Below are positions 11,701 through 43,490 of a stretch of DNA of 64,000 nucleotides, piece by piece. The DNA is from Marsupella aquatica (Eukaryota; Plantae; Marchantiophyta), in contig OZ316896.1 in the NCBI GenBank assembly GCA_973895155.1, positions 5,593,303 to 5,657,302 of the forward strand, given 5' to 3'. Positions within the stretch are counted from its first letter, which is position 1. Every line of letters begins with the position of its first letter. The notes under the pieces are model-generated. The model saw only the letters and a program-made list of their open reading frames with translations, had not been told where the DNA came from and ran no database searches. A program made the translations under genes and the position numbers.

Positions 11701-14700
11701 TAAAACTGCTTTGGCACGTAGAGCCCACTGATCAGCCTTAGTCTCGATCAGATTCATAACGCTGTACCAATCTTTCAATGTAAAAACGAGCTCCTCGTTG
11801 GTGTTGCTGGAGAGCGCTAGATTTTCCACCACCATGCTAATGATGTAAGAAAGCTCCTGCAGACGTTCACGTAGAATTCAATTAACTTCTACCGCAACAA
11901 AATTCTGTAACGATCACGATAGCAATTCCTCGCCAACAAGGGTAGTGGACATGTAATGTCGAACAGACATGCAAAATTAGTATTTCAGGAGGTAGACAAC
12001 ATATTCATAAGATAAGACCGAAATTGCACACAGCATAAGAGCAGCTTCTAAGGTAAGATAAAGGAGCTGAGCAGACAATACTTACTTTGGGGCTTGCGTT
12101 GTTCAAAGTCTCCAAGCCTCTTTCAACAACTGTCCGGACAGTCGAGTCGAGAGCCAGGTCCAGGAAAATGATATCTCGCAAACGATCATTTCCCTTCAGG
12201 AGGTTCGGTCTCAGCTCTCTCCGTGCTTCCAACAATCCCTGTATCGTGCGAGATAACATTTCAGTTTCGCCTAGATTATAACCTTTGTAAAGTACTCCAT
12301 CAATTCATCCTATTTACATCACTCCTATTGAAAACTCTACTGGGGTGAATGTGTCATAGGACTGGAGCTCGCGGGAGTGCTATTGCTGTATTGAAACATC
12401 AACTGTAGTGAATACTTCATATTGACCGAAGCTTGCAGGAGTGCTAATGCTGCAAATTTCAGGGAACCCATTGAAAGTACATACCTCCAATAATGGCACG
12501 ATGTCTCCCTTGTCTTCCACGCGGGACAGAACAAACCGCAACAAATCCTTCACAACACAAAGCGGATGACTAATTGAATGACTTTTCATGGTAAGGTCCG
12601 AAGACTACGTAAAATCTAAGATGTACACACACCGGAGGAAGAAAACTGACGAATGCCAATTGAAATACAAAACAAAAAAGTAGTTGAAAACACTGAAAGA
12701 TACAAATTGATCCAGAGATAATTAGCAGTCTCGTCGTTACCGGTAGGTCTTGTGACAGCCCGCTGATTGGATGGATTTGAACGCCTCCCATGAAGCCCTC
12801 ACCCTGTATCATGTCCTTTCAGAGATCAGCAACCGAAGTTGTTTGATAAATGCACAGAAGGAAAGGGCGGGTCAGAGGCATTCACGGATTAGTCCAGGGT
12901 ATACATACATCCGCAGAATAACCCATTGCGAGTGCAATTGCAGATTCCAAGTCGGCTCCAGAATGCACAGCCTGCATCATACACGCTAGTCATTAAGCAT
13001 CACCCAGGAATCTCATTTTTTGAAAATGCGGATCAAATACAGCAGCAATTTGAAATGGAGATTGTCAAAATTCCAGAGGAAATTATGCCAACTTGGAAGT
13101 CCCGTTCCATTCTTACCTTCAAAGTACGAAGATAGTTAGTCAAGTCCCGAGTAAGGCTGTCCTTCTCTTCACGTCGTAGCTTTGGTTCAGACACTATGGG
13201 CCTATCATAGCTTCTCATCCTCTCCTTCGTGACTCCATTATCGTTCAGTGACTTCCAGTAGACATCCATGTTGAAATCAGCTGCGATGAAGTCTAGAAGA
13301 GCCTGAAACATCCAGGAAGATGTTAGTCAAAGGAAGGAAGGAAAGTTGGGGATTATGAATTGCAAACGTCAATTCCAAGTCCAGCCGAAGTGTGGGAATG
13401 GCGCCACCTGACAGATGACTACATCGTCTGGACTGGTGTTGTTGTGAAGTTTTTGATGCCATTCTTCCATCATTCCCCCTTTAGCGTCATTGTTCCTCTG
13501 AACAACAAGAATTTCATCCCGAATTCGTTGGCCCACGTCACCTTGTCCTCCTCTACCCACGGTTGACATGATTAGCCTAACAATTTCGCGGTTTTGGGGT
13601 TGATCACGATAAGTGGACTGTAGAAGATCCGTCAACTTCTCCTGGGCAGCACTAATCTCTCTTGGCTTCACATTGTAGTTTTTGTTCCATGTCAATTGCC
13701 TGGTAGCCATGTATCGCAACCAGACAAGAATTCCGACTAATGCCAATTCTCCCTCATCCTTCGCACGTTGTGCAAATCCAGCTGTAATGTTATATCTGAG
13801 ACACGAAAACGAGGTTGTATTTTAACATCTTGTATTCTTTGAAACTCTTGCTTTCAGGGTGTTTTGCAGTCGAGTACAATTTTGTTTTGCAGAGCTGGCC
13901 AACTGCTAAGACATACACTCTCACCTGAAGAACAATACTTACCGATGCATCAAGGACCGTTCAGCCTCACTTTCCTGGCTTGCAATATCCTCCAAGAAAG
14001 CTTTGGCTGTCCCGCTTCCATCTCCGAGCGCCTGGTAATTGCCGATTAAGAACCAGACCTTAGTGACAACGATCCATCTACAAAGACTGAAAGTACGAAT
14101 ATACTTGGAGGAAGGATCTGAATTGCCCAGATCTGTTCATATCTGCAACAGAGTCAGAGCTCACCTTAGGTTTCTTTTGGTCAGCTGCCTTGAGAGTCAC
14201 ATAGTAGTCCCCACCATTGTCTTTCCACCAATCCTCTCCAACCTTGAAAAGGCATGGCATCCCAATGTAGTCGCTGTCGCCCAAGTTGATCTCCACGGAC
14301 TGATGAAACAAAACACGACAAGGCTTAAGCTAATATCCTGCCTTTCCTAAGGCAATGAGTACCAGGTCAGATGGTACGAACGCAACCAACAAAACCTCCA
14401 AACAGAAGTCCAGCTTGGGTATAGCATGAAGGTCGACAAATAACAAATCCTCAAGGAATAATGTATTCACAAAAGCTGAGGGCATCCCGTACCGTCCTGG
14501 AATCTAAAGGAGAACACAGGAAATGGAGGAAGTTGTTGTGCTACACAGCTCATCTCAAGAGAAAGACGAAAGTTTCTCTTTCTTCAGAAAAACAACGCCA
14601 TTTCAATAGATGTGAAGTACTCTGCTACGAAACTGTGTTCGTCTCAAACGTCTTTTAGCTCTCGAGAAACTAATCCTGAAGGTTCGCACATTATCCACCT

Positions 14701-17700
14701 TTAGAAAATCTTCATTTCCATACCTTGAGAGATGCGTCGCCAGCAAAACCGTCGCTGAAAGGAGTTTGTGCGAAACCTTCGGTCAAGACGGACCCTTCGG
14801 GCACGACTTTCTCTGCGGGTGCCTGATTGTAGATGCAGGCCATTCACTTAGGGGACACTTTTGATAATTGGCCGTATTGTGCAAACTTGGTCTAGTCCGA
14901 GAAAATTGTTCAAATAAATGACAGTAAAGTAACAACCGTAAGTACTTGGGAGGTCCTAGTTTCCAGCCTTACCAGCCATTCCCTTGCATTGTTCGTCGAT
15001 ACAGCCCAATGTAATGTCAGTGGGCCCTGCTGCAGATTTGTGGCCAATCTCACTTTGAGCTCTCCATCTGGATTTGTCACAAGTACCTGGTAGGATACAA
15101 AGGGAGTGAGGGGAAAAAATTGCAGGACCCTGAAGGACAGGCAACCAGCCTCCTTGGTCACAAAAAGAAGCATAATAACCAGAACACTCAGGCGTCGTCT
15201 AGCTGCGACAAACTTAATTCTTCGTTGTAATTGTTCGATATAAGCTTACCAGAAGATCGCTGGGTCCGAGCTTGAATATTTTACGAAGAAGTATGAAACC
15301 CTCTTCCTCTTCTTCTATAACTTTAGCTGCTGCTTCCAGGGGAGTGGGTTCCCTCGGAGGAGCAGGTGTACCTCCTTGGACTGCCCCTGTGGAGAGCTCA
15401 TCCGCGCGGTTGAGAAGCTCCAATGGGTCCCTCTGCTTCCGGGTCACTTTCGAAAAGTTCATCTTTCTGCTGGATTTTCCATTATTACTTGTAGAAGGCG
15501 GTGATCTAGTGTCACTGCTGCCTCCCCCTCCAGTTAGCTTCGATCGCAGGGCATCAATTGAAAGTCCTGCAGCGACCTCCATCTGCAGATCTTTTCGAGC
15601 TGCCTCAAAATTTTCCTGGGAGCCGCATGAATGCCATGGTCAAGGAAATATAGGTACGGGTATTCCAAGAACAAAAATAAGGTCCTAAAGGTTCATGAGT
15701 TGTAACAGAAAAGGGAGTTGTCCATTTTCCGAAAGGCACTAAAGAGGTTGCGAGACTTTCTCATGCTTGGGAATCCACGATTTCTAAAACTTGGACAGCA
15801 AATATATCCCATTGACAGGCCATCCAGTGAACCAACAACGAAAACTCATCGGCTCACTCACGACCCCCGAATGATCCTTTCCCGACCATATTGAAATTCA
15901 TTTATGGCGCTCAAGTGGAATGAATTGCGTTAAAATATATATATCCCTGCTCGTCTGTACAATTTCTTCAGTGTGTAACATCTGGGTTTCCCGTGCAGTT
16001 AGTACGCATTTTAGCAGCAAACCCGGGCACGAACAGTTTTACATGCACGATTCCTCCAAACTTCCTTTTGGCTGAAGGGATTTATCTGACTTAGTCTGTA
16101 CCTTCTCTTGCTCGGGTGAATACATTTGTTTGCCATTCTTCTCCCAGCGTAGGTAGGACTGGATCCCAATCAGATCATCCGGAATATTCACGTCGAAGCC
16201 AGGATTCGGAAGCTCTACACGGTAGTTCCCGCCATTGTTCTTGAACCTAAAGTAGAGCACCGATGCCAAAAAGAGTGTGACCGCACAACATTTTCGTGGG
16301 TGTCCAAGATCACCTACAAGTAATGCAATTCTGTAGCTTCTCTCTTGAGGTTGGTACCTATATCATCTGAATCTTTTGGATGACATTTCTACAGTGCAAG
16401 AGGCTGAACTGAATGTAACGACTCAATTGAAACCCCTTACCATCGATCGCTGTTATCTTCTTTGAGGAGGAACTCGATTGCGTTGAATGCAGCATCCTCG
16501 AGATCAACTCGAACGAAGGCTCGGTCTCCGTCCTGAAAAATACATGTTTAGGAGAAGATGCAATGGGAAGCTTCCATACTTTAACAGATAAATAGATACC
16601 AGCAACAGAAACGTACTAGGAACTAGCTCAACTCAACTAAGCTGCAGCACCTGGAATCGGAGGGGAGGGGAGGGGAGGGGAGGGGAGGTATAGACTACCT
16701 TCACGAATCGCGACTGTACTGCTTGATTCTGAAAGTCCCAAGAATCAGCCGGTCTTCGATTCGGAAGATACCACTTGCTGCGCATAACATTGAGATCGGA
16801 ATGAGATCATGCCCTTGGAGAAGTAAGGGCATTTGACAAACATGGGAAAAATCGTACACACTATGGAATGCTAGGATCTAGACGGGAGTGGTCACGTGAT
16901 ATTTTACCCTTTTCCAGGCTTGGTCGCACCCCAGTGAAGAATCAGGGATGACACATTGCTGGAGGTAACTTCTAACTCAACAAATGCTGGTGATCCAGGA
17001 GCTCCACTGGATGTTTTGACCTGCAAAAGTCCGCGCAAAAAATCAGAATAAACCCTGGGTACGGCACGTCCGTAGGCAATGCTCTAGGGTAAGAGCTGCA
17101 AGAACAGATAGTCCAATTCACAAGATACGCCAATGGGCAAAGACCATGCTTCAGAGAAACCCCATTCCATTACTGACATGACAACCAGTAAGGAATGCCA
17201 CAAGAATTGCCGTCTACTGAGATGCGGTTTGGATCATGATTATGCCACATCCTCATTCAGACCCAAAAGAGCGGAAACCGGTCAAAGCCCACCTTTAAAT
17301 TTCCAGCTCCTCCTTCAAGCTGATACTCGCCAACGACCTGGACGTACAATCACAAGTTAGGGATATTAGCAATGAAACCTTTAAGAAGAAGCCCCGATAC
17401 CTCAAGCTATAGTAGAGGATCACAGAATGATTGGACGCGAATGTTATCCCCTGTATGATCTGTTCGACACAAAACACAATCTTCAAGCATCACTCGGATG
17501 CAATTGGGGAGTTCATATGATTTTCTGGAAGTTTGGGGGGAAAACGTCGCTTCTAGAGCTGCAGAGTAAAAAGGACAGATAATCCGGCCGGTGGTCCATT
17601 CATGGATGTACTTTAGTAATTAGTCAAGTTCTTCTGTGTACATGGGGTATGCATTCATTCAATAGAGAGCTCAATATATTTCAACAGAGTTCTGATCAAG

Positions 17701-18475
17701 CCTTTAGCGCCCATCGTATTATCTTCTTAGGCTTGGAGAAACTCGTGGCCCCATAATAACCGAACCGTGCTCTGGCCATTCTCACGCGCCATCTGCACTG
17801 GTCGGAGGCACATATCGCATCACAGCTCAGCTTTAGGGACTCAAATCTCAAGGTTTCTGGGTTTCATTCTCTGTGATTATGTTTATGTTCCGTTCAGACG
17901 TAGAAAACATATTCGGACGATGAACAATCTAGGACCCGGCATTGCATGCCACAAGTCTTAGATCACAGATTTCACGCCGAGAACTGCAACACCTTCCCTG
18001 CAGACTATGTCAGATGTCTTTGAATTCCTAAGCTGTGGCACAGGCATGTAAAACGTTTATTCGTGGGCGCTTAACACAACGCCCTTTGCGCTGTAGGACG
18101 GAAAAGAGTTCTTACCTCATCAACCGGGGCATCGACAGCGATGGCTGCGCGAGGCATGACTCCGCCCCTTCTACTCACGCCCCTCGCATTATCGAATCTG
18201 GAGGAGGCCGTCAAGGAAGGGAGGCCTCTTGCGAAGTAGGTGTTTCTCTTGAGAGAAGACGCATTCGCTGCGCCCGCAGAGGACGACAACAAGCGCGACG
18301 CCCCACACGCAGAGCAGGAGGAGGCGGGGAAATCCACCACATGCGCGCGTCCTATTTGCGCTCCTCTGCTGCTGCTGCTCAATGCTCCGCTCTGCTCCGT
18401 CTTCGCATGACTAGCGGTCGGACATAGCGCCAAAGGCTGAATTGTCGCCGCTACCGCAAACCCACAGCCCTGCAT
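8761..18475 (-). CDS. GWD1: Alpha-glucan, water dikinase (plastid starch phosphorylation), many exons
   Basis: Ser/Ala/Arg-rich transit-peptide exon (18116-18475). CBM45-like exons (LILHWG, LHWAV). GWD motifs YLRWEKNGK, WLRYMATRQLTWNKNYNVKPREIS and MMEEWHQKLHNNTSPDDV. Phospho-His motif DILSHVSVRARN. Nucleotide-binding VGAKSRN, VKGLGETLVGAY and C-terminal QDIEGV...IVQTRPQM. Confidence 0.96.
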
Positions 18476-18815
18476 TCTGGATAGAATCTCCTCGTCTGCT
18501 TCTTCTTAAAATCTATGTGCTCGAAAAGAGAAATCGAAAGAATTGAAGTCTGCAACGCTGAAACGCTCGGTCTGTCCGACTCGTTTCGTTCTGGTACAAG
18601 CTCTCTTCGCCCTCTGCTGCTGCTACTGCTTGGGTGGAGAGCAATCACGCTCTACAGCCCTGCATTCTGGATAGAATCCTCCTCTTCTTCGTCTTCTTAA
18701 AATCTACCTACTCAAAAAGAGGAAATCAAAAACATTGCAGTCCGCAACACTGAAACCCTGTGTCCGTCCGATTCGTTTCCCTCTCATACAAAGCTCTCGT
18801 CGCCCTCTGCCGCTG
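18465..18815. repeat. ~190-bp tandem duplication spanning the GWD start codon and 5' UTR
   Basis: CAGCCCTGCATTCTGGATAGAATC...TCTTCTTAAAATCTA...TCCGA.TCGTTTC...CAA.GCTCTC..CGCCCTCTGC occurs at ~18465 and ~18656. Confidence 0.75.
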
Positions 18816-19188: not shown

Positions 19189-20091
19189 GACTCGTCTCCG
19201 TTTTCTACGGTGGCATACGTAACACGTGATGAAAGAAGCCCTTTTCCCTGCCCCCAGCCCGTCAATCGTTATTTCATCTGCCCTGCCCAACAGCCCGCCA
19301 TCTCGACACCTTTGCTTTCAAGACATTTATTTGATGGACCGCCCCCCCCCCCAAAGCAAAGTTTTCTCTCCAAGTCTCCAACCAACCCTATGAGCTTTTG
19401 GATACGTCAATTTAAAGTCTAACAAAGGTCTGGATCACTTGTGGGGTCCATCCAGGACACTTTTAGTTTTAGGGGTCCATTGAGTAAATGTCTCTTTGTT
19501 TTTACCCCAACCCCCTCAACCCCAAGCATAAGGTTTTTTTCTCCTATGAATTTTTTTGGCTTAGGAGCTCGAGTGAGGATGATGGACCCCCAAAATGAGA
19601 AGTGTTACTTGGCGGACCTCATGCGTGATCCAGAATGTTGATAGATGTTCACATGTTGATAGATGTTCAATTGATCTATCCAAACCCTCATGGGGATGGT
19701 TGGGGATAAAACTTTGGTTTGGGGATACATTAAGTACATGTCTCCTTGAGAGACATTTACAAGATGGGCCCCCAAAATAAAAGTCTTACTTGATGGACAT
19801 CATGAGTGATCCAGACCATTGATAGATCAACCTTCAATTGACTCACCCACGAACTCATGGGGTTGGTTTGGGAGAAAACCTTGGTTTGGGGGTCCACCAA
19901 GTAAATGTACCCCAACTGTGTTGCCTGTTCCTTGAATGTAAATAGAGGTAAGCCTTACCCCCCTTGGTAAAGGTTTTCTTGGCCATGAATGTTTTCAGCT
20001 TAATTGGGAGCTTAATAGCTTGAGTCCCAAGTGTGCTACCGGTTCTTTGAATGTAAATAGCAGTCAGCCTTACCCCATGCGAGTAAAGTTC

Positions 20092-20229
20092 TGTCGTGCG
20101 CATACATATCGCTACACAACATACATCGCTTGTCACATACATCCAGACATAGTCACACTGCCACATCACAAACACAAGATAATGGAATACAAGTGGAACT
20201 CATGTCCACACATGTCCAAAACCCACAAT
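20092..20229. repeat. Terminal repeat segment A, outer copy (138 bp)
   Basis: Matches 20559-20696 with 3 mismatches by eye. Confidence 0.9.
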
Positions 20230-20556
20230 AATCTCAACACAATCGACACAACGATCCCGGTCAACAATACCCCATCGATCCCGCACCAATCCGATCACAC
20301 ACGTATGTCAAGCCAACGCACCTTGCACTACTCAAGGAATCCACGTTACACAAGCGGAGCTCACAGCCACCATAGCCACTCAAGCTCCTCTCTCTCCAAG
20401 GCTCAACATTGAAAGATGACCTTTCAATGTCTCACAAGTGAGAAGTACCCTCTCACACAAACCTGACGGAACCTTATCGGCTCCAATAGCACTCATACCA
20501 AACGTACATACTCTAATAGCATGATATACTACTACACTACTCAGAATGGTGTGACA
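20229..20556. repeat. Terminal repeat segment B, inner copy (328 bp)
   Basis: Matches 28741-29068 with 6 mismatches by eye, all transitions. Confidence 0.92.
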
Positions 20557-20558
20557 GT

Positions 20559-20696
20559 TGTTGTGCGCATACATATCGCTACACAACATACATCGCTTGT
20601 CACATACATCCAAACATAGTCACACTGCCACATCACAAACACAAGAGAATGGAATACAAGTGGAACTCATGTCCACACATGTCCAAAACCCACAAT
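20559..20696. repeat. Terminal repeat segment A, inner copy (138 bp)
   Basis: Direct repeat of 20092-20229, separated from B by a 2-bp spacer (GT, 20557-20558). Confidence 0.9.
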
Positions 20697-20706
20697 CGCC
20701 CCCCTA
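20697..20706 (-). other. Candidate polypurine tract
   Basis: Minus strand reads AGGGGGGCG immediately before ATTGTGGG, the start of the inner A copy. Confidence 0.5.
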
Positions 20707-20869: not shown

Positions 20870-21012
20870 TCACCGACACTGAGGACACAACCATGATCCA
20901 CTAGGAATCACCTGCAATGGTGGTGTCAAACATGACATGTGCCATCCTCTAGAACACTTATCACAATCAACATAGTAGTTGCTCCCTGAGCAGATCCACA
21001 CAACATACATTT
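20870..21012 (-). pseudogene. PHD finger (C4HC3) at the integrase C-terminus, one frameshift
   Basis: CMLCGSAQGATTMLI, then after a frameshift CDKCSRGWHMSCLTPPLQVIPSGSWLCPQCR*. Confidence 0.85.
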
Positions 21013-22410
21013 CAAGCCAGCACGAATATGTGCCAAGCTTGGATCTACTGTACCATCAATGTTGGGAAGGTGACATGGTGCACAGTTGCGCACATGATCC
21101 TTCCAAACCATACCATCGCGTCCCTCCAACATCAGGACACCAGAAGGCAACACTTCACGCACACGTAAGATTGTCCGGTCTGCGGTCACATCAAGTATCG
21201 TGGGTGCTGTCTGCTGCAAATAAATATAATCACCAAGATGAAATCGCCGAATGCTTGCACGGTAACCTCCTCCACGAATAGTGGCATACCTCAAAGTATC
21301 ACGATGTTGGGCAATGGCAAGGTTGTCGAAAGCCATGGGCATCACTCGCTGAAATACCCGTGCTCTCTCTGAACACACCTTGACCCAAACATCAGGATCA
21401 TCCAAGTTCACAACTGATGCAGCACCACGACGAATAACTGCTGGCAAATCTGGCTCTCTACCATAGAGCAAAAAGTAAGGTGAGAAGGATGCAAGTGATG
21501 CTTGCCGATTGAAACGGTAGCCCATAGCTAACCAAGGTAGCTGGAGATCTCAATCTCCCAGATGACCAACCTGCAAGCCATACTTACGCAATCCTCTTTT
21601 CATAGTTTGCACAACTCTCTCAACTAACCCATCTGCCTCAGGATGATCACGAGAGGTAGTACGATGATCAATCAGAGCTTGTTCACACAAACTCTCAAAC
21701 TCTCCACGGAACTCAGTTCCCTGATCAGTCAACACCTCAGCTGGTGCTCCAAAATGACTGAGTACACGATCCAAAAATATAGCAGCAACTCCTCCACTGG
21801 CTTTATCTGGCAACGCCACTAGCTCAATCCACTTGGAGAAGTGCTCCACCATGACCAAAACATACCGATTATGACGTTGGGTAAGAGGTAATGGACCAGC
21901 AAAATCCAAACTCCAACGATATCCCAAACCCATGATCGGCAACGGGTGCAATTGGAGAGTGGGAGCATTAAATGATGCTCTCACTCTGTCACATACCACA
22001 CATTTAGCTATCAACTGCTGGACATGAGTGTGCATACCATGCCACCAATACTGTGTCTGCAGCAAGCTGTAAGTGCACTTTATACCAAAGTGACCCAACT
22101 CCTCGTGCGCATGTCGCACCAAATGTACTCTTTGTGATGGTTTTGGGACCACCAACACTCTACCATCATGCAATACTCTCAAAAGATGGTTTCCCTCCCA
22201 TCGAAACCTCTTGGCTCTCTGTAGAACCCTGTCACGTTCCTTGGCATCAACACTGCCAACAATAGAACCACTGCGCAGATATTCCAACACTCTCACATCA
22301 TTGTGAATATCTTGCTGTCCAGTAGTTACCTCACTAACATCCACATCTGAAGACTCATCATCCACTCCATCCAATGAGGTAGAGTCCACAGATCCATTGT
22401 ATGCTGGCAC
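21013..22410 (-). pseudogene. Gypsy DDE integrase with HHCC zinc finger
   Basis: HAHEELGHFG...CVVC, WSLDFAGPLP, VLTDQGTEF and HPEADGLVER. In-frame TGA at 21550 (TGG expected), then MGYRF..SPYFLLYGREP. Confidence 0.92.
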
Positions 22411-22499: not shown

Positions 22500-23937
22500 T
22501 GGTACATGGATTGCGGCTTAATCCATCTGCATCCAAGTTCATTTTTCCAGGCCTATGCACCACCTGGAAATCATACTCCTGTAACAACAATGCCCATCAT
22601 GCAAGCTTCCCTGTAAGCTTGTCAAACTCCATTAACCACTTAAGAGGCTGATGATCAGTGATCAAGGTGAAGGGGTTACCAAACAAGTAACAACAAAAGT
22701 GTGCAACAGCCCACACTGCTGCCAAACACTCTCCCTCATAAGAGCTATACTTAGCCTCTGCTGAATTGTTTGATCTACTGGCATAAGCCATAACAAACTC
22801 ATTCCCCTCATCATCCTTCTGAGTCAGCACTGCTCCAAGTCCTACTCCACTCCAATCAGTGTGTAGCTGAAATGGTCTGCCTGAAATGGGTCTTCTCAAA
22901 ATAGGGGATGATGCCAACCTTTGCTTCAACTCCTGAAAGGCATGCTCCTGGTCATCACCCCAAATCCATTCCTGATCCAACTTAGTGAGTATGGTCAAAG
23001 GTTTAGCAAGCTGGCTAAATCCTTTAACATACCTCCTGTAGTAGCTCACCAATCCCAAGAATGCACGAACTCTACTCACATCAGTAGGACAAGGAATCTG
23101 TGTAATGGCCTCCACTTTAGTCTGCTGTACACCCAATCCCCCTGGGTATATAGTGTGGCCCAAATACTCAATCTGGTCTTGGAAGAACTTACACTTGCCA
23201 GGATGGAGCTTCAACCCATGTGCTCTCAATCTCTCCAACACAATTTGCAAGTGCTGCTGATGTTCTTCCACAGTAGAAGAATAGACCAAAATATCATCAA
23301 TATAACATCTAACAAAATCCAAACCTGCAAGGATTTGATCCATAACTCTCTGGAACTCAGCTGGTGCATTCTTCAACCCAAATGGTAAGAATAACCACTG
23401 ATACAAACGATCTTTGCCATAAGAATCAATCCCCCAGAATGTTGTCTTGGACCTGTCAGTATGCCTAATTGGAAGCTGATGGTACCCGGCCCTCAGATCC
23501 AATGAACTGAAAACCTTTGCATGCCCCACAGCATCAAAGATCTCCTCAGGTGTGGGCATGGTATATCGATCAGATTTTGTCTGGCGATTAATAGGTCTGT
23601 AATCACCACACATGCGTCTATCTGTGTAATTGCCATGCACATCCTTCTTGGCTGGCATCACTGTGGCAGATGCATACTCCCCATATGAAATCTCCACCAA
23701 TCCAGCCTCCAACAAATCTTGAGTTCCGCTTTGAATCAGAGCTCTCTCCATGTCACTATAACGGTATGGTCTACGAAAGACTGGCGCATCAATCTGAATA
23801 CCAAGGCCCTTCAGTGTCCCCAAATCCTTCATGCTGAATGCAAAACAATTCCAATAACTCTTCAGGAATCGATGCATGCGACGTCTCTCCTCCCCTGTTA
23901 ACTTAGGGCCAAGCTGTGGTTCCCAACTCTCCACCAA
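22500..23937 (-). pseudogene. Gypsy reverse transcriptase and RNase H
   Basis: RMCGDYRPIN, LDLRAGYHQL, LPFGLKNAP, YIDDIL, FQLHTDWS and TDHQPLKWL. In-frame TGA at 22597, then WALLLQEYDF...DADGLSR. Confidence 0.95.
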
Positions 23938-24179
23938 ATCCCTAATATCTCTTTGTAGGGTAGAAGAGATGGCCGATGATTGCTATTTAGCAGTAGATTG
24001 AGCAGTCCCTTCCTGCTCAACAATCTATCCAACCTTGGCCAATCCTGCCATAGGTCCATGGACTGTCTGCTCGCCCCCAGCTGTGGTCAATACTGTCTCA
24101 GTGGACCGCAAGCTCACCAAGGGACAATCAGTAATTCCAGCAGAGCGCATCCGCAACTGTTCAGCTACTCCCAAGCTGA

Positions 24180-25130
24180 TAATCCAAGTCAAACAATTCA
24201 GGTCCATTGCTTGACCAAGAACCTGGCGCCGCAAACCCTCTGACACAAAGGCAACTGTAGTGGTGCCAGTCAAAAATCCCATAGCACGCTCTCTCTCATC
24301 AGTAGTAGGCTCCACTAACTGCTGGAGAGCTATGTCCCACACTAGTCCAGGGCCACCTGCTCTGAATGCATATGAAGTAGAGTGGCTTACAAGAGTCGGT
24401 AATGCACAATGTGGGCGCCCAACTACATTGACCATTGTCAATGGAGGTCTATCAGGTTGGGTCACACCCTGTGCCCGACGCCCTGGATCCAAAATATCAT
24501 CCACCACTAAGGCTGGTGAGCGTGGAATGCTGTCAAATGCGCGCTTCAGCACCTCACATGGGATCAAATTAGTCCACCACAAGCGTGGACGATGTGCACG
24601 AGAACCCACACGTGCAGCATCCAATAACATAGCAGGTCCAATCCAAGACCTCACCTGGTGAACAATGGCAACAATCCGACTATGATCATCACCTAACAAT
24701 GGCACATTCTCCAAAATGTATGTTGGAGACTGTGTCTGATGTAGCTGGAGATGACGCGGCACCCGTAACATCTCCCAAAACAATGTAGAGCGTGGATCAT
24801 GAAGTCCATGCCCAATGCCAGCTCTAGATTGGCCCTGACATGGCCAACCAACAATCACCAAATCAATGGGGCCAACACGATGTAGATGATCCGCCCCCAG
24901 CAATGAAATATCAGCAGGTAGTGCATGCTGATAACCACAAACAGCATACTACTGGCAGCAACTGTGGATATCTATCCACCAACATAGCCACATGTCGCAA
25001 TGAGACCCTCCGTGCTGTCTTATCTGTCTCCACATACAAATAATGACGCACAGGAATTCCTGCCTGAAGAACAACAGCCAATCTAGTGCTAATCCCACTA
25101 AAAAGATCCAACAAACAAATACCCTCTGGT
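24180..25130 (-). pseudogene. C5 cytosine DNA methyltransferase domain (DNMT3-like, non-permuted) inside Pol; one frameshift near 24950
   Basis: Motif I LLDLFSGIST, II YLYVETD, III ADI, IV DLVIVGWPCQG, V LFWEMLR, VI ILENV, VIII LDAARVGSRAHRPRLWWTNL, IX ERERAMGF and X RRQVLGQAMD, in canonical order. Confidence 0.9.
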
Positions 25131-25198
25131 GGATATTGCCAAGCAATAGGAGTGGTATCCAATGGTGAAAGAGTCACAGGTCCATCTACAAGAGACTG

Positions 25199-25909
25199 CT
25201 ATGCTCCTGATTGTGGTGTAAAAGCATGACGCCATGCATCATGTACCAATCGTGCTACTGCCTGTGGCAAGGCCTGTGCAGTGCCCCACACTGGTGGCAC
25301 AACACTGCCAACAGGTAATCCTCGCATGATGTGCTCCTCATGAGACTCCTCCAATGGTGGAACATCGGCTGCATGCACATTACCCTCGATCAAATCATCA
25401 GGTCCAACAATTACACCACTGAATGCTGCCAAAGACAATGGTGTGGATTTAGGGCCTCCCACAGGTCCACTAAATCTCACTGGCAATTTTCTCAATCGAG
25501 CATCTCTTGACTGCCAATCAGGTCTATATGACACTGATTCCTCCCAAAAATCAAGAATAAATCCCATGGGGTAGAGCACTATACATCCCACCAACACATC
25601 ATATGACTCTGCCTTAGTCAGAATAGCTCGCGCCTGTATCTGTGAGCTATCTGTGGTATGACCTTCCTGAATCCTCAAATCAAGTGGTCTCCTAGTGATA
25701 TGTTGTGTAGGTGTAGGTCCCCCCAATGAAGTCTGAATGGGAAAGGGACAATCCTCCAAATCCTCTGGACGCAATCCCAATCCACGTATGACAGACTTCC
25801 CCAACATCAAGGGCTGAGCACCAGTATCCAGTAACACTCTCTCTAGTTGGTATACTGCTCCAAAAAGCCCAACTAATCGGAAGATACCACTCCGATTATC
25901 CAATGACAC
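25199..25909 (-). pseudogene. Retrotransposon aspartic protease
   Basis: VLLDTGAQPL catalytic motif and downstream YDVLVG. Confidence 0.85.
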
Positions 25910-27946
25910 AACACTAGGTTTAAACCTAGTCTCTCAAATGCAGGGCGTGCTGATAAATCCACCAACCTCGCTACTGCTGCATGCCATGTCTCACTAGTAG
26001 CAGTAGGTGGTATGGTCTTCACTACTTCTGCATGGGAAACAACAACTGGAGTGTCCTCACAGAGTGTAGCTGCTAATTTGAACACTTCTGCAGGACCAAC
26101 TCCCAAGTTCAGCATGTCTATCACTGAAAATAATGGGGTGCGTACTATGGCAGTAGCCACCCCCAACAGGGTACCTGTCATCCCTACTGTATCACTACCG
26201 GATTTTGTCAACTTACCCACGCCAGGGTTTGTCCAAACCGGGTTCATAGAGGCAGTCTGAATTGTCTTTGACAATGTAAAAGACTGAGGAAGCTTTGTCT
26301 GCCAACGTGCATCCCCCCTCTGTGGATCTAGCTCCACTACTGCTCCTCGGGGCTCAAGAGCTTTGGCTGCCCCACGTGTCAAAGCTGCTGATGCATCAAT
26401 ATGTGCAGTGCCACACATGAATCCCATGGTGACAAGATCTTCATCAGCTCCATAAGATGTGGAAGGACCATGGGATGTGGAAGGTCCATAGGATGTAGAT
26501 GCCCCATCACCAGAAGTAGGTCTCACCTGGGAACTAGCCATGGCAGCTAGCTGTTGCTTCAATTGAGCAATCTTAGCATCCTTTGGAACTATGGTTACAG
26601 CAGGGGCAGCGTCACCTCCCTGTCTCCCTGCATGTGGCATGCCACGACCACGTCCACCACCTCTACCTCCTCCTCCTCTTCCCTGATCATGTGTACGGGA
26701 TCCTCCCCTCCGTAACTCAGGGTGGAGTGAGAAACACCTATCCTTGGTGTGTCCAGAAGCTCCACAATGATCACACTGTCGCTGATCAGGTGCTGATGCT
26801 CCCCCTGATCCTCTATGATCTGGGCAATATTTTTGTGCATGATCCCCACCACAGGTCCAACATCCTGATTGCTGTCCAGCATAAGAAGGCACAGGTCTCT
26901 AGCTGGTAGACTCTCGTGCAGTAGGCTTCTCCCTCTGGCTCTTCCGTGCAGTAGGCTGTGGTGTAGATGTAGATGTAGCCTTTGGTGCTTCCTTGGAAAA
27001 TCCGGAAGTCATCACCTTCTCATTCATCATATTGAGCTCAATACGCTCAGAAAGGGTGAAAACAACTGCTAATGTGGAATTTGCATCCCTAAGCAGAGTG
27101 ACATCTCTCACTCTACGTCGCAATTCTCTGTCCAGAATTGCATACCAAAACTGGACTGCTTGAGCCTCTGTCACTCCCTTGGTGACAGTGATCAATCTGC
27201 GTATACGAGTGTATGCCTCATGTAGACTCTCTCTAGTCTTGCGCTGGAACTCCTGGAGACCCTTCAACTTATCAGTTCTCACACCCTAATAGTTCTGCTT
27301 CAGTACCTCAAAGAATTTCACCACAGGATTAAATGTTGGCGCAACTCCAGTTCCTGTCACAATCACACCGGCAGGAGTAGCGATGGATGCTACTGGTGGA
27401 TGGTGTGCCACTCTGGCTAGTGCTGCTAGAAGAGGCAGCAGCTGTGGCAATGGGTTGGGCTGCCGCACTAGTGCCATAGGTGATGGACACGTAATTAGGT
27501 GACCAATGCTGCCTTCATGCCTCAATCTCAACCAAATGAGCCTTCCGAAACTCATGGTAGTCATCCATGGGTGGCCCTTCCAAATGCTGAAATAATCCCT
27601 TCTATGCCATGAAAGGGGTAAATAACATGGCGTTACGCAATGTCTGCATATCGCACCACGTATCAAACTCCTGGATGAAGTCATCCAGATCAATTGTGCC
27701 AACTGCACCAGAGTATCGTCGTGGGCCCTTTGTAGCCCCGTACATCTCGTCCATATCCCACAACAAAGGTGCAACCACCTGATGACGAGGAGAACTAGTC
27801 ACTGAGTCCTCATCGGAATCACTGTCTGAAGCTACACTACTGACTGCTACCAATACCGCTGGCCAAAACTGTGCCCTACTCTGAGTGAAACCGGTCCGTC
27901 GTCCATCGGGTAACCCAGCAGCACCAGAAGAATCCGTGGTGACCAA
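25873..27946 (-). pseudogene. Gag with two CCHC zinc knuckles and an RGG tract (stops/frameshifts)
   Basis: YSG...DDFIQEFDTWC, FQRKTRESLHEAYTRIR, CWTCGGDHAQKYC, CDHCGASGHTKDRC and GRGGGGRGGGRGRG. Confidence 0.85.
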
Positions 27947-28729: not shown

Positions 28730-28741
28730 ATCTTTCAATGT
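28730..28741 (-). other. Candidate self-priming primer-binding site
   Basis: Minus-strand ACA|TTGAAAGAT at the inner end of B is the perfect 12-nt complement of 28918-28929 inside B. No TGG-type tRNA PBS is seen here. Confidence 0.5.
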
Positions 28742-29068
28742 AATCTCAACACAATCGACACAACGATCCCGGTCAACAATACCCCATCGATCCCGCACCG
28801 ATCCGATCACACACGTATGTCAAGCCAACGCACCTTGCACTACTCAAGGAATCCACGTTACACAAGCGGAGCTCATAGCCACCATAGCCACTCAAGCTCC
28901 TCTCTCTCCAAGGCTCAACATTGAAAGATGACCTTTCAATGCCTCACAAGTGAGAAATACCCTCTCATACAAACCTGACGGAACTTTATCGGCTCCAATA
29001 GCACTCATACCAAACGTACATACTCTAATAGCATGATATACTACTACACTACTCAGAATGGTGTGACA
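28739..29068. repeat. Terminal repeat segment B, 5' copy
   Basis: Matches 20229-20556. Minus strand reads TGTCACAC...GATTACA. Confidence 0.92.
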
Positions 29069-32000
29069 GTTCTCTTCTGGCCATGAAATTTGAGCTTACT
29101 AAGCCTACTGTGAATCTAAACATAGGTAAGCCTCAATGTGTTGTCGTGTTTATTGAATGCAAATAGAGATAACAACATTCACATGTCATTTGTGGAGACA
29201 CTATTACCTTTCAAAACACAGTGTTCAGTTTTAATTTTGAAACCAATGTAAACACTGATAAATCAGTTTGTCACATCAAAATTCTAAGAATATTCATAGA
29301 GTTTTGGGAACTAAATTGAAATTCATATAGGTAAACCATTTCTATATTTTCTGTGTAGTTATTTATCCACCAGTTCATATTCAAAGTTTTACTTTGGGCT
29401 ATGGACCTGTTGTAGGCTATGAGAAGAGGGGACGCCCCAAGTTGCTTACAGAACTTATGGTCTTGATGACTTGAATTTTTGTTTCTCAAACCCCATCCAA
29501 CTCAAGTTGCCAATTCTTAAGCAGATTTGAGTTTTTGCTTTGTTTTGAGTTTCAGTGTGCGTGACATGTTGTCACTTTCCACTTTAGTTCCTGTTTTGGC
29601 CCTTGTCCTCGGGATTGGATGCATTTGATCTCCGGGTTATGTATTGGTCCTTGATATTTGGTTTGACTGGCCAGGTTTTACTCCATGTTTTACTGGGTTT
29701 TTCTTTATATAGGTAAAGTATTCCTTCCAAGATAAAAACCCCATCCAACTCGAGGGTACACATTACAAAATTTTCACAAGTTTCACGAAAAAAGTACTCT
29801 AAAACTTCACCCCTGGATTCAAGTTTTCAAAAACTATTTATCTATTGCATGAACCTAAATTTGTGGGTGTGACCGGCCGGTGATGAAACTGTCGTTTTTC
29901 CCCTGCCCAGGTGCCCGGGAGGCCTGTCACCGACAATCGTCGATCCTATAAACATTACCCATCGGCCCGCTCCGCACTTCTGTTCGGTTTGACTCGACAA
30001 GCTGCCTGACCGTACGGCGTCAGAATTTATTTCAATTGGTTTTACCAGCGGGCAGGAGTGAGGCGGTCCTTTTTGGCTTTTTCCTATACGATCTGCCCGC
30101 GGGCAGGACTGGGACCGATGATTCCCAGCCTCTGATTAGAACAGAGCTTACGAACGAATGCAGCAGCGACTGAGCTCCGAGAATGACACGTGTCCATGGG
30201 GTCTCGTTGTGCGACACCTGTGAGCATACACTCCGTCCCATCGATTCAACATTTCAACTGAGTAAGGTTGCTAGACGCCAAAAAACCGAACGAACGTGTC
30301 AAGCAGCTATGGGCCGGTTTGGGGACATTGGCTAGGGAATGGTTTGTGCCCAAGAAGGCATAGACACGTGTTTTTTAACCTCGTTTGTAGTACCTACTGG
30401 GGTCCACCCGGGATTCCCACTTATCTTTCCACTTGACCAAAGGGACAACCTTGCTTTGGTTTGGCCAATCCGCAGGAGTGCCGAAGTACTGGGGGGGTCT
30501 CAAATATAGCCAGCCGGAAGTCTCAAGGCAGTCCACATTAGGTTTGCATGGAGGGGGCCTAAAAATGTGTGGCATTTCCTGAGCCTAGCACTCTAGTGTA
30601 GCAAAATTTCACTTCAGCCAATAGGGTGTGTCAAAGCATAACTGTAACTAAGTTACTTTAACTAAGTTACGACTAAAAAATTCTTATGACCAGGACAGAT
30701 TTGCTATGGGCTACCAAAACACGTACCCGGTAAGAGTGGTACGTCCAGAAAATGAAAGTCAAGTCATAACACTTTGGTTACGGGAGTCCTTTGACATGAC
30801 CTAATGACCCCCCCATCCAGAATTAAATTGACCAGAAAAACGTGATCTCCAAAGAGTCTCTCTGCCAGTTGATGTCACAGGCAGGCCACATTACAAGCAC
30901 TGGCCTGTCTCACAGACGAGCAAATGGGTCTATATTTGAGACCCCTGTTATAAAATTATTAGAGTTAAACATTAGCCCAAGATTAATGGTCGGATGGACC
31001 ACTCCCATGAACCTTGCAACCCCAATGGACCAGTTTACTGTTAGTAAAAAATGTAAAGATTTGTGTACAAAGAAAAGTGTTATCTGAGTACCAAGAAAGC
31101 TTCTCTGTCATCCAGCACTGGGGCAAACATTTAGGTCCATGGGGGCTTCAGTTTCTACCAAAATTAATAAATATATTTAAAGTTCACAAAAATATTGAGA
31201 CATATAGGAATATTACCTGAAAGCCCTGCATTGCACAGTATTGTCGCTAGTAAGTGTTGGGGTAAGTGTTGTTGAACGGAAGTGTTGTCAAGTGAGATCG
31301 TCGGGCAGTCAAGTTGCGGGGAGTCAGCAAATTGGTCTCGCGGCTGGATTTGAAGGAGTGTGCAAGAGCTGCGAGGAGAATGATGGGTTAGATGTAAAAA
31401 AAGTGCATATTGGCATTATTAGGTCCATCTCATGATTAGTGAAAAATGTTGCCATAATCAAATGACCAGGAAGGCTTATTATCACATTGACATTTAGTAA
31501 ATAGACCATGAAAAAGAGAGCAAGATTGCATAGTAGAGTATTGAAGTGTTAGATTCATTGAACAAATTCATTCATTACCATCCTTTTTTTATCTAATTAA
31601 ACATATATTTCACTCTTTTAGTTTAACTAGGACCTCAATTAGGACTTTGCCATCTTTTTCACAGTGGGTTTGGCAAACTAATGCAGGTATGGTTAGCTTT
31701 GAATATTTGAATGGTGTTTCTCTTGAACCTTTTTTTGCTTCAGATGGTCTGAAGTCTGTTCCCTTTAACCCTGATCAATCTATATATCTTGCTACCACCC
31801 TCCACCTTGGGGCGAGTCACTTGCCGTTACCCCATCCCAACCTGTTCCCTTTGCGGTCATCAATAATTTGTGATAAGAAGAGACCCGGCACCCAAGTTGG
31901 AGTACAGCAAAGGGTGGGCAAGATAGGATCAAGGTTAGTAGTTTCACCCATCAGATGTAAATTTGGCCACTGTTGGATCCTTTTGGGCTATCCTGAGTTA

Positions 32001-35785: not shown

Positions 35786-35899
35786 ATTTACTTTAAACCC
35801 TTGCGTTGAATTGGCTTTGGCCTGGAATGACCAGTGTCCCACCATTGGTGGATTTCTCGGTGGACTTAGTTTGTTGTGAGTAATCTAGTCAGAGGTGCT

Positions 35900-36955
35900 A
35901 TGGCGGATTTTGCTTCATCGACGCATCGCCATCATTGGATTTTGCCTAGGCAGAAGCTCCTTGAGAAGTGCGGGGCTGCAAATGCGAGAGCGCGAGAGGC
36001 TTTGCGAAAATACGGAGCCACCCGAATTGAGGTTCAATCGGATGGATCACTGACATATCCGGGTATCTCAGAAGAAGGAGAAAACGGTGCTGCAGACAAA
36101 GGACCCTTGCCCGAGCCTCTGACTGTAGAGGAGGAGTTACTTGTTCAAAAGTACTACGAGAGGAAGATCCAAGAAGTCTGTGCAGCTTTTTCATTTCCTA
36201 ACAAGATTCAGGCCACAGCCATCTTTTACTTCAAGCGTTTTTACCTGAACTGGTCTGTGATGGAGCACGATCCGAAGCACATCATGCTTACTTGCATATA
36301 TTTGTCATGTAAAGTTGAAGAGTTTCATGTCTCTGCGGAGGAACTTGGGAAGGGCATTCAACAGGATCCGCAAGTGCTCCTCAAGAATGAAATGACAGTT
36401 TTGCAGGGTCTAGATTTTGAGCTTATTGTGTACACGCCATATCGAGCACTGGATGGATATGCTTTTGACCTTACGAATTCCGCTCGAAGGATGGGCGTCA
36501 CATCCTTGAACCATATTCAGGAACTCAGGGATGCAGCTAGATTCGAAGTAGATGCCATGATGCTGACAAATGCCCCTCTTCTTTTTACCCCGGGACAGCT
36601 AGCAATGGCAGCATTGCGAAAAGCCAATCGAGAGGAGAGGAAGGTGGATCTCGAACGATACATGAGAGGTCTATCCGAATCACTAGCAGTCAAACATCCA
36701 TACTCAGAGTTGGCAAGTGCTCTGGATGCAATTGATGCGGTAGTTATGGACAACAAACAGACTGCCGAAGCTGACGTGAAGCGTATTGATCGTAAGTTGA
36801 AAATATGCCGTAATCCTGGTCTGCAGGACGAAAATAAAAAACGTGAAAGAAAAAGTAAGCACAAGCCAAGGCGTGGCCAAGCCGTGCCTCCTGGGCAGGA
36901 TGTTTCCGTTTCGGATATAGACCTAAATCATGGTGTGAAACGAAAGGCACAGTGA
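35900..36955 (+). CDS. CYCH;1: Cyclin H (CDK-activating kinase subunit), single coding exon, 351 aa
   Basis: MADFASSTHRHHW start. Cyclin box FPNKIQATAIFYFKRFYLNWSVMEHDPKHIMLTCIYLSCKVEEFHVSAEELGKGI, then LDFELIVYTPYR and LLFTPGQLA. Confidence 0.95.
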   Translation: MADFASSTHRHHWILPRQKLLEKCGAANARAREALRKYGATRIEVQSDGSLTYPGISEEGENGAADKGPLPEPLTVEEELLVQKYYERKIQEVCAAFSFPNKIQATAIFYFKRFYLNWSVMEHDPKHIMLTCIYLSCKVEEFHVSAEELGKGIQQDPQVLLKNEMTVLQGLDFELIVYTPYRALDGYAFDLTNSARRMGVTSLNHIQELRDAARFEVDAMMLTNAPLLFTPGQLAMAALRKANREERKVDLERYMRGLSESLAVKHPYSELASALDAIDAVVMDNKQTAEADVKRIDRKLKICRNPGLQDENKKRERKSKHKPRRGQAVPPGQDVSVSDIDLNHGVKRKAQ

Positions 36956-41795: not shown

Positions 41796-43059
41796 CTTCC
41801 TTCAAGCTGCCAAATCATTTAATCCCAACTCCAATGCCAAGATTCGAAGAGCTGTGGGAGAAAGAGCGAAGCGCTCTGCAGCCAAAATGTAGAGAGCATA
41901 TCAGTAGACGTAAGCAATGTGCGTTCGAGTAGACCAAGCTCGCAACAAGACATAAACCCACGACGAGGCGAGACGTTGAGAAACTGAAATCGCGCCAGCA
42001 AGCGAAACTTCCACATTCCAAGCCAAAGTTGATTTTACTTCGGACATGAGAGCCAGCAACAACGCAGGGAAGAACCCCGAGCCATCCCCAAAAGAGTCCT
42101 CGTCGGTCAGTAAACTTCGGAGAGCGTTTCCTAGTTCGAGACACCTGACGAAATTCGTTTAGAGACAGAAAGCTGGAGGGCCGTGAACTTTCCCGCCAAG
42201 GTATGACAGAATATTCATTGGAACTAGCACAAGAGAGCGAACACAGTCATGTGGAATCAGAAAGGGCGTCAGAGAGGGTCCTTCAATCTTCCACGAGACC
42301 GTAACAGTCTTGCCATGCAACAACGAGAAGTGAGACATCGTGCTCTTAAAAACACGCGGTATGCTGGAAACGATCATACCCATTGATTGAGAAGCTCCGC
42401 CAACACTGACGGAACGACCCATCCGTCAATCGTTTCCACCAGAACTGCATAGGGCTGGCCCCGAAAGAACCCAACTGGAACGACGACGCTCTAGCAATTC
42501 CTCAAGCTCATCCCCGAAGGAAACTCTCCAGCCTCCTCGCCCCCTCGCCTCTACTCGCCAAAACAACCATCCCCGTCCTCGAGTGAGCACCGCAGTGATT
42601 TCAGAAACGCCTGAGGAAGGATGTGCGTGACAACGCGCCAGCAAATGCTGAAAAACTCTCTCGACCGCAGTTTCCATACACCAAAACAAAACTCACTGGA
42701 CCACAGTTTGCGTTCGAGACCAAAAACTAAATAGAATCGCTCTCGAGGTCGACGATTACCATACTTTGCAGATTGGGTTGACGTCGGGCGGTTCCCTGCA
42801 GTGTGTGATGTCCACCTGCTAATGGTGAATTCTTGGTGAGAGGAAACAGCGAACGAAATAATACGCAGGAGGTGCTGAGTTGGGCATTTTGAGGGTTTTA
42901 CAGGGTTTTGCCGTCCCGCCAAATGAGCACCGGGATACGGTATGGGTTTGAATGGAAAAGTTTGTTTCAAGAGAGACATAATAGTTGAAGGGACCCCATG
43001 AAAAATATTATCTGATGGACCCACTGATGGACCCCATGAGGGATCTATGCTCATGATGA

Positions 43060-43490
43060 AGCTTAAATCAAGGTACCCAAAATCTCATGGGGCCTCATGG
43101 AGTCCACCACATAGCACTTTTCAATTTAGGACTTGAAATGAAGGTACCCAAAATCTCATGGGGTTTCATGGAGTCCATCCGGTACCACTATCCAATTACT
43201 ACCTGAAATCAGGGTACCCAAAATCTCATGGAGTCCATCAAGTAACACTTTTTCAATATAGTACCTTAAAAGAAGGTATCTAAAATCTCATGGGGTCTCA
43301 TGTAGTACATCAAGTAACACTTTTCAATTTAGTACCTTAAATCAAGGCACCCAAAATCTCATGGGGCCTCATGGAGTCCATCAAGTAACACTTTCCAATT
43401 TAGTACCTGAAATCAAGGTAATCAAAATCTCATGGGAACTTATGGAGTCCATCAAATAACACTTTTCAATTTAGGGGTCCATCAAGTATA
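43060..43490. repeat. ~70-bp minisatellite, about 6 copies
   Basis: The unit AAGGTACCCAAAATCTCATGGGGCCTCATGGAGTCCATCAAGTAACACTTTTCAATTTAGTACCT.AAATC is repeated. Confidence 0.9.

Follow-up and report, generated by a model that had tools for sequence, protein, structure and literature searches.

Why would a retrotransposon keep a cytosine methyltransferase of its own? The question has been open since 2018, and it is raised again by a locus of the liverwort Marsupella aquatica, examined here in a stretch of 64,000 nucleotides (contig OZ316896.1 of GenBank assembly GCA_973895155.1, forward-strand positions 5,593,303 to 5,657,302; hereafter "the window," whose own numbering is used throughout). 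A first-pass annotation, made from the sequence alone, had marked positions 24025..25201 as a C5 DNA methyltransferase (DNMT) lying inside the Pol region of a Gypsy element. An enzyme domain is indeed there, as one domain only of an 8977-bp Gypsy element that occupies positions 29068-20092 on the minus strand. The element is a decayed liverwort member of a DNMT3-carrying Gypsy family known from the alga Klebsormidium. Its full domain order is Gag, protease (PR), DNMT, a stop codon, reverse transcriptase (RT), RNase H (RH), integrase (INT), and a PHD finger. Taken together, family membership, a methyltransferase that ends the first open reading frame (ORF1), predicted readthrough of the stop, and predicted methylation of the element's own cDNA make up the account toward which we lean.

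What kind of enzyme does the element carry? A six-frame reading of the minus strand places the domain at 24130..25140 and agrees with the annotated layout. The motif LDLFSG shares the frame of the protease, from which a TAG at 25199-25201 separates it. GWPCQ, ILENVP, HRPRLWWTN, ERERAMGF, and LGQAMDL lie in the RT frame, with TAGs behind them at 24025-24027 and 23983-23985; a change of frame falls within the domain near 24948. These are what we take to be motifs I, IV, VI, VIII, IX, and X of C5-methyltransferases, and they stand in non-permuted order, with the catalytic PC, ENV, and RxR present. A DRM fragment is ruled out, since the motifs are not permuted. The Pfam search that the first-pass annotation had proposed recognized the C-terminal part as DNA_methylase (PF00145; 6.2e-10, 39.4 bits, cut-off 22) and found nothing in the N-terminal piece of 94 residues taken alone. 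A natural relative, P0003, is 83% identical over the C-terminal part, has the whole domain in-frame with the protease, and scores 46.1 bits against PF00145. The nearest solved sequences to P0003 are DNMT3A (4e-11), DRM (1e-6 to 4e-3), HaeIII (5e-5), and HhaI (0.012). A structure model of P0003, built from a 57-row alignment, has a predicted local distance difference test score (pLDDT) of 96.8, and its top fold match is DNMT3A/B/C (E 5e-20, TM score 0.70/0.83), with DNMT3 entries accounting for 34/34 among the top matches listed. On the modeled fold and the sequence comparisons, the domain appears closer to DNMT3 than to DRM2 or the bacterial enzymes, in keeping with the DNMT3-like, non-permuted character first assigned to it.

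The catalytic cysteine and glutamate are invariant in 57/57 aligned rows, and the domain has therefore been kept as an enzyme. Strict motif patterns are found in 22-42 of the 57 rows, many of which are partial or diverged; invariant alignment columns were relied upon because strict patterns miss such rows. Between lineages, the ratio of nonsynonymous to synonymous change (dN/dS) in the domain is ~0.12-0.15, at dS values close to saturation, and a comparison of two decayed copies within one family gives 0.7. The methyltransferase domain is under purifying selection.

Could a fragment of a host DNMT3 gene simply have been captured, recently and passively, by this copy, or have been inserted into it alone? 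The broken state of the window copy suits such an event, and nothing beyond that does. The copy is dead, with ~10 stops and four frame changes relative to natural relatives. The first reading had put the stops down to decay, which is correct for the stops at 25199-25201 and 24025-24027 and for the frameshift near 24948, all private to this copy, and incorrect for the stop at 23983-23985, which is conserved in relatives. In public runs X1 and X2, nearly all depth shows another letter at the 24027 and 25201 stops, and most contig depth has one base fewer near 24948 than the window. Sister contigs over the DNMT domain number in the thousands in four public runs (5079 in X1), a summed depth that is not to be equated with copy number. 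Absence of the domain from sister copies had been named beforehand as grounds for doubt; the sister contigs carry it. It occupies the same position in 80 related metagenome loci and in proteins of Marchantia, Calypogeia, Sphagnum, Closterium, and Klebsormidium, it has no introns, and its branching is congruent with that of the RT. Passive capture of a host gene is excluded, its probability being negligible, and the domain is an inherited part of the polyprotein, as had been proposed, and not a later insertion.

How, then, is the family related across the green lineage? The Klebsormidium protein KFL_009030040 has the order PR-DNMT-RT-RH-INT and is 47% identical in the DNMT domain; we infer that it is one of the KnitGypsy-Dnmt3 copies described in PMC5890265. 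Other named relatives come from Marchantia (up to 69% identity over the C-terminal query), Calypogeia, Sphagnum, Closterium, and Haematococcus, the last with its DNMT domain between RNase H and integrase. FastTree phylogenies of RT and DNMT were built from 34 rows picked by hand out of 304 proteins and the 80 loci, were rooted at the midpoint, and consist of element sequences, with host DNMT3, DRM, and DNMT1 enzymes and the REXdb reference clades left out. In the RT tree, all elements with DNMT before RT form one clade together with Klebsormidium (support 1.0), so that the comparison with Klebsormidium made at the outset holds in identity, domain order, and RT clade. Stop-bearing elements form one subclade (support 1.0 for RT and 0.985 for DNMT), with the same branching in both trees. 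The DNMT is co-inherited with the RT; the deep branching and the succession of the domain's changes of place are beyond the resolution of the DNMT tree. Locus scans with single proteins returned no relative in metagenome or viral contigs, and a profile scan of viral contigs gave no more than six matches, all of them short (46-78 residues, E 4e-8 to 1e-5).

Several variants were seen along the way. A second architecture, RT-RH-DNMT-INT-PHD, is found in 57/244 related proteins (e.g., P0041-P0108), including the Haematococcus models; its carriers look like chlorophyte elements in which the DNMT is inside Pol, and this order goes without mention in the portions covered of the text of PMC5890265. 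A related methyltransferase domain also occurs in Cymbomonas. Five proteins of 2100-2400 residues (P0117, P0253, P0292, P0297, and P0298) have Gag-PR-DNMT-RT-RH-INT as one ORF and are likely to represent the state before the stop was gained. Marchantia polymorpha has full-length ORF1 models of 1278-1281 residues; of the 15 Marchantia cluster members listed, all annotated as hypothetical or CCHC-domain proteins, at least 4 are on the V sex chromosome.

The design of a DNMT3-carrying Gypsy element is thus already known from the alga Klebsormidium. The passages of de Mendoza et al. 2018 (PMC5890265) describe KnitGypsy-Dnmt3 of Klebsormidium nitens as having Dnmt3 in the Gypsy Pol ORF, DIRS-like A-coding-B-A-B repeats, and Ka/Ks of <0.2. 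The window element shares with it the Gypsy body, the non-permuted Dnmt3-type domain, the PR-DNMT-RT-RH-INT order, the A-body-B-A-B layout, purifying selection, and membership in one RT clade. It differs from what is described there in having a land-plant host and many copies and in closing ORF1 with the DNMT ahead of a conserved stop, where the Klebsormidium element has it within an uninterrupted Pol ORF; a term search of that paper's main text for readthrough, self-priming, and target duplication returned no mention. The same source describes SymbioDIRS-Dnmt3 and SymbioLINE-Dnmt of dinoflagellates as retrotransposon-borne and independently acquired, with CG activity for two DIRS enzymes. These are likewise retrotransposon cytosine methyltransferases, and split repeats are shared with the DIRS type; however, they belong to elements with a tyrosine recombinase or a LINE (long interspersed nuclear element) endonuclease, whereas the window element has a DDE integrase. 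The Chlamydomonas elements REM1 and Gypsy-7a_cRei are PHD-bearing Gypsy elements with unequal left and right repeats, and, unlike in the window element, no methyltransferase is reported for them in the passages of PMC9940879.

Where in the polyprotein does the enzyme sit? It had been placed inside Pol. Because the TAG at 23983-23985 is conserved in diverged relatives, the methyltransferase can be assigned by sequence comparison to the end of ORF1 (Gag-PR-DNMT), not to the middle of Pol. The C terminus of P0003 is the residue just before this TAG. Of the 27 proteins of the stop-bearing clade that have motif X as well as a protease motif, 24 stop short of RT, and the remaining 3 are NCBI models. 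Among the 80 metagenome loci, 60 span the junction (20 were too short and were dropped), and at 98.5% these reduce to 52 distinct loci. Of the latter, 47/52 have a stop in-frame 55-90 nt ahead of the RT anchor, with CAR-YY behind it in 46/52; CAR follows decay stops in the same loci in 12/418 instances. The linkers, 249, 306, 348, 390, 420, and 429 nt in length, all keep the frame. An intact PR-DNMT-RT ORF, which the first-pass annotation had hoped to recover from other copies, is not there to find in the stop-bearing lineage, where the conserved stop separates DNMT from RT.

How would the downstream RT-RH-INT-PHD part be reached? Readthrough of the stop is likely, judging from the nucleotides around it. 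The window stop and its context, TAG CAA TCA at 23977..23985, fit the UAG CAR YYA signal of tobacco mosaic virus (TMV), and CAR-YY is present in 47/48. The other contexts are CAA CCA in L015, CAG TTA in L025 and L029, CAA TCA in L051, and CAA CCC in the main family. Passages of PMC2194720 and PMC3159437 describe the TMV signal and the in-frame stops that part ORFs in murine leukemia virus (MuLV), SIRE1, and Tca2. The window junction resembles these in its UAG CAR YY context, possible 3' stem, and in-frame stop between ORFs; unlike in SIRE1, MuLV, and Tca2 as described, where the stop is at gag/pol or pol/env, it stands behind the protease plus an accessory enzyme. The predicted long-range RNA stem (23875..23975, arms at ~23975-23952 and 23901-23875) begins ~+10 and ends ~+100 after the stop and has folding energies of -14 to -28 kcal/mol within clades and -6 to -15 kcal/mol across clades. 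In the window, 8/1647 control pairs were equally strong, and the arms had been picked after the folds were viewed. The stem is weakly supported and is offered as a lead only. In the first step of the mechanism we propose, ribosomes would read through UAG CAR YY at a low rate, yielding particles with DNMT at the level of Gag and RT and integrase at a fraction of it. We consider this step probable from the conserved junction sequence.

Several points weigh against it. The strict CAR-YYA form is present in only 5/48, the main family having CAA CCC, and since ~43/52 loci belong to one family, only about five stop contexts are independent. The conservation count is drawn from metagenome relatives and not from the host's own copies. 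Five of the 52 loci are without a stop at the junction, two having a Tyr codon and three being others. For the region behind the stop, the whole-region fold in the window was not significant (z 0.07) and RNAalifold returned no long-range stem. Three NCBI models bridge the stop by a predicted intron into a common acceptor region. As a separate observation, the two Tyr codons (L037:6959-6961 and L044:5029-5031, approximate positions) keep CAA CCC behind them, and RT similarity is lost soon after the RT start in these loci.

The NCBI models bring up another explanation, namely, that RT is expressed without passage through the stop, either after splicing or from a second start or promoter. Splicing between ORFs occurs in Ogre elements. 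Four models (P0009, P0010, P0016, and P0042) connect DNMT with RT, and three of the four do so close to one shared acceptor; however, these are predictions and their donors differ. In the window, L015, and the main family, the stop has behind it a run of pyrimidines that closes with AG, and the main family also has an ATG six bases past the stop, yet L025, L029, and L051 have neither ATG nor pyrimidine run and the window has no ATG. The yeast element Tca2 offers a precedent, since an in-frame stop need not mean simple readthrough and the second-start or promoter route was first found there, as far as the passages seen describe it. Against splicing, the frame is kept across six linker lengths and CAR-YY is retained where synonymous sites are near saturation. 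We judge bypass to be distinctly unlikely, and readthrough is retained as the preferred explanation.

The rest of the coding region follows Gypsy order. Pfam searches on the frame-read ORFs gave a weak protease, DNMT, RVT_1, RNase H, rve, and PHD, all on the minus strand. The Gag region of ORF1 (25940..27754) aligns with Marchantia P0004 from residue 1 and has two zinc-knuckle-like motifs along with stops and a frame change; no Pfam Gag family matched it. The aspartic protease (25517..25873, LLDTGAQP) is 80% identical to that of P0003, with Asp_protease_2 at E 0.004, below the cut-off. RT and RNase H (22600..23900; RVT_1 2.6e-34, RT_RNaseH_2 5e-33) are in the same frame as the methyltransferase, and the integrase (21000..22140; H2C2, rve, and a C-terminal part) contains stops. 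The C-terminal PHD finger (20873..21004, 8.6e-10) has a frame change near 20975. As regards the plant chromovirus clades Tcn1 and Chlamyvir of REXdb, whose criteria are RT-RH-INT placement and a chromodomain, the Pfam scan of the element matched no chromodomain, PHD being present instead. No tRNA gene and no Rfam family were found.

The ends of the element are less conventional, and the first-pass annotation had overlooked their split repeats, self-priming site, and internal junction. The repeat order is A1-body-B1-two bases-A2-B2. A1 (28742..29068, 327 bp) starts with TGTCA at the 5' end of the element and matches A2 (20230..20556) at 321/327 positions; B1 (20559..20696, 138 bp), ending in ACA, matches B2 (20092..20229), which ends in CGACA at the element's 3' end, at 135/138. 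GAAC target-site duplications flank the whole (29069..29072 upstream and 20088..20091 downstream). Around related insertions, 4-bp duplications bring the count to six, and a seventh has one mismatch. Does this make a Gypsy element? The PR-RT-RH-INT order, DDE integrase, TG...CA ends, and 4-bp duplication (4-6 bp being expected) are those of Ty3/Gypsy. Two equal terminal repeats with a tract directly before the 3' repeat are not found, the layout being the split A ... B-NN-A-B. The element works like a Gypsy element, though it is not a canonical long terminal repeat (LTR) element. Membership in DIRS/PAT is ruled out by the rve integrase, the 4-bp duplication, and the lack of a tyrosine recombinase; a domesticated host gene is ruled out by the multicopy state and target duplication, and contamination is ruled out by plant host genes on either side.

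How might such an element be copied? The 12 bases directly behind A1 (28730..28741), a predicted primer-binding site, are fully complementary, with 12/12 Watson-Crick pairs, to 28929-28918 within A1, a predicted self-primer at what is likely the 5' end of the transcript; pairing of this length turned up in 1/1272 control windows. Of the 5' repeats of the main related family, 9/20 (6 insertions) form 11-24 nt of pairing at this position through a different sequence, and the others have shorter pairing. A tRNA-type primer site was looked for behind A1, and none was seen. A polypurine-tract-like site, AGGGGGGCG (20697..20705), directly precedes B1, and not A2, and recurs at the same place in the main related family, L025, and L051. 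The two bases between B1 and A2 (20557..20558) are the spacer of a CA/NN/TG junction, a predicted integrase attachment site. The window, the main family, L025, and L051 all have this junction, mostly as the palindrome GACA-GC-TGTC. The tract before B and the junction are kept in three diverged lineages. The A2/B2 seam falls exactly at both predicted cDNA ends in the window and 5/7 related insertions; of the other two, L071 has 19 extra bases with a tract-like end and L030 has a primer-site remnant plus filler.

In the second step of the proposed mechanism, then, the transcript would prime itself and the tract before B1 would prime the plus strand, so that a linear cDNA of the form [B-NN-A]-body-[B-NN-A] would result. 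Its ends would be joined (A/B), and integrase would cut the left internal CA/NN/TG junction to leave A-body-B-NN-A-B; a single-repeat circle would instead give A-body-B copies. The end joining may follow strand transfer without a free circle being formed. We favor this second step somewhat, on the arrangement of these sites. According to passages of PMC6317226, self-priming is known in Tf1/Sushi and plant Tcn1 Gypsy elements, which likewise have a primer site complementary to their own 5' repeat and no tRNA; the window element differs from them in having PHD in place of the chromodomain and an additional B repeat. The terms methyltransferase, PHD, and Marchantia are absent from the main text of that survey. 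Passages of PMC1180852 describe the foamy virus integrase as cutting palindromic junctions of 2-LTR circles, a resemblance to the DDE integrase predicted here to act on a palindromic CA..TG junction within double-stranded DNA. The foamy virus junction is, however, the end-to-end join itself, whereas here the site is fixed and internal to the repeat and the end join is a separate, variable seam.

Some copies depart from the full form. Eight loci (L008, L011, L024, L028, L046, L047, L049, and L067) end after the first B, and a perfect 4-bp duplication flanks one of these A-body-B copies, L024. Such copies could come from a single-repeat circle or from B x B recombination. The insertion at L030:14836-15124 (the same insertion as L035) is without the stretch from RNase H through B1. 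At its 3' end, an A piece that starts at the primer boundary (within a base) is followed by what is left of a primer site, 5 bases of filler, and B, with a perfect duplication. It looks like an aberrant first strand transfer.

One count tells against cutting of joined ends. If both junctions were equal, half of full insertions would be expected to have the form A-B-A-body-B, and it was found at 0/16 distinct 5' ends; therefore, either one junction is favored or copying of a DIRS-like kind is at work. In the latter, DIRS/PAT-like case, B2 and the A/B join would be inherited from the parent RNA, the internal junction would only template the ends, and A-body-B copies would arise later by B1 x B2 recombination. 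Such copying would account for the missing permuted form, and it would suit both the repeat layout, which is that of split-repeat tyrosine-recombinase elements, and the fact that most A/B joins are identical. However, it gives no function to the tract before B1 or to the covarying self-primer site, and the joins of L030 and L071, with their primer-site or tract remnants, look newly made. L030 is moreover without B1 and the tract, yet has a B end and a perfect target duplication. DIRS/PAT-like copying is accordingly thought unlikely, and self-priming with cutting of an internal junction in end-joined cDNA is kept as the working model.

What would the enzyme do for the element? Fusion of the DNMT to Gag suggests packaging and methylation of new cDNA. 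In the third step, the packaged enzyme would add 5-methylcytosine, most likely at CG by analogy with the dinoflagellate Dnmt3 enzymes, so that the cDNA would enter the genome already marked, and the PHD finger may steer integration by chromatin marks. On this step, drawn from the domain arrangement, we are evenly divided. CpG depletion of the element (0.41 against 0.66-0.72) can be the host's work, and the Klebsormidium enzyme was without activity in yeast, a result described in PMC5890265 as inconclusive by its authors. The latter result also suits a role mainly outside the particle, whether at the insertion site, on host genes, or as a noncatalytic DNA- or RNA-binding part of Gag. High predicted abundance and a chromatin-reading PHD finger are in line with nuclear action, and the position of the domain is flexible, as the 57/244 proteins with DNMT between RNase H and integrase attest. 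Against a purely structural role, the catalytic residues are invariant, and the fact that the domain is joined to Gag or Pol in all architectures found speaks for packaging. A role mainly outside the particle we view as possible and on the doubtful side. Packaging and premarking of cDNA thus stay in the proposal.

The CG of the internal junction is kept in 17/29 B ends, with deamination products in 12/29. One improbable speculation would unite the three steps in a green-lineage Gypsy clade with its attachment site in mid-repeat that integrates end-joined cDNA. A co-packaged DNMT3, its dose set by readthrough, would methylate the earlier-made CG junction, and only the last-made junction would be cut, so that A-body-B-A-B would be the only viable form found.

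The element has plant host genes around it, including a Myb gene, a glucan water dikinase gene, and an amino-acid transporter gene. An intron-rich glucan water dikinase-like gene (DUF7067, PPDK_N) is on the minus strand at 9725-18505; an ORF that is possibly the first exon of this gene has the element ~1.6 kb upstream. Cyclin H (35870-36955, plus strand, 7 kb from the element) is one long, apparently intronless ORF, 94% identical to that of Calypogeia fissa and 69% to that of Marchantia paleacea, which places the host among the leafy liverworts. An inverted repeat at 19418-19826, with 78-nt arms that are 76% complementary, has a 40-nt repeat in common with 43459-43498 and is possibly a small nonautonomous DNA transposon; at 43050-43471, six units of ~71 nt form an array.

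How much of this is new? A search of the open-licence literature, with subscription journals, Repbase, and theses outside its scope, brought up no description of the family from a land plant, and none of the stop, the self-priming, or the internal junction. The portions covered of PMC6453930, PMC9940879, PMC6673714, PMC8616336, PMC5784723, and PMC12344493 (plus one supplementary file) do not report the family in land plants; passages of PMC12344493 speak only of "streptophytes," and its trees and tables may include Marchantia copies. New here are the family in Marchantia, Calypogeia, and Sphagnum, the conserved stop, and the ends with their predicted self-priming and internal junction.

These findings matter for several reasons. 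The known carriers, Symbiodinium and Klebsormidium, are hard to work with, whereas Marchantia polymorpha is a genetic model for which methylome data exist. The paper on the Marchantia methylome, in the passages covered, lists five methyltransferases and never mentions DNMT3. The stop codon reveals how much of the enzyme the element wants: if readthrough is true, DNMT would be made at the level of Gag, and RT and integrase at a fraction of it. To our knowledge, retroviruses are generally held not to integrate from joined cDNA ends, the linear form being the precursor. If the internal-junction route is true, this family would provide a natural DDE retro-integrase that acts from joined cDNA ends.

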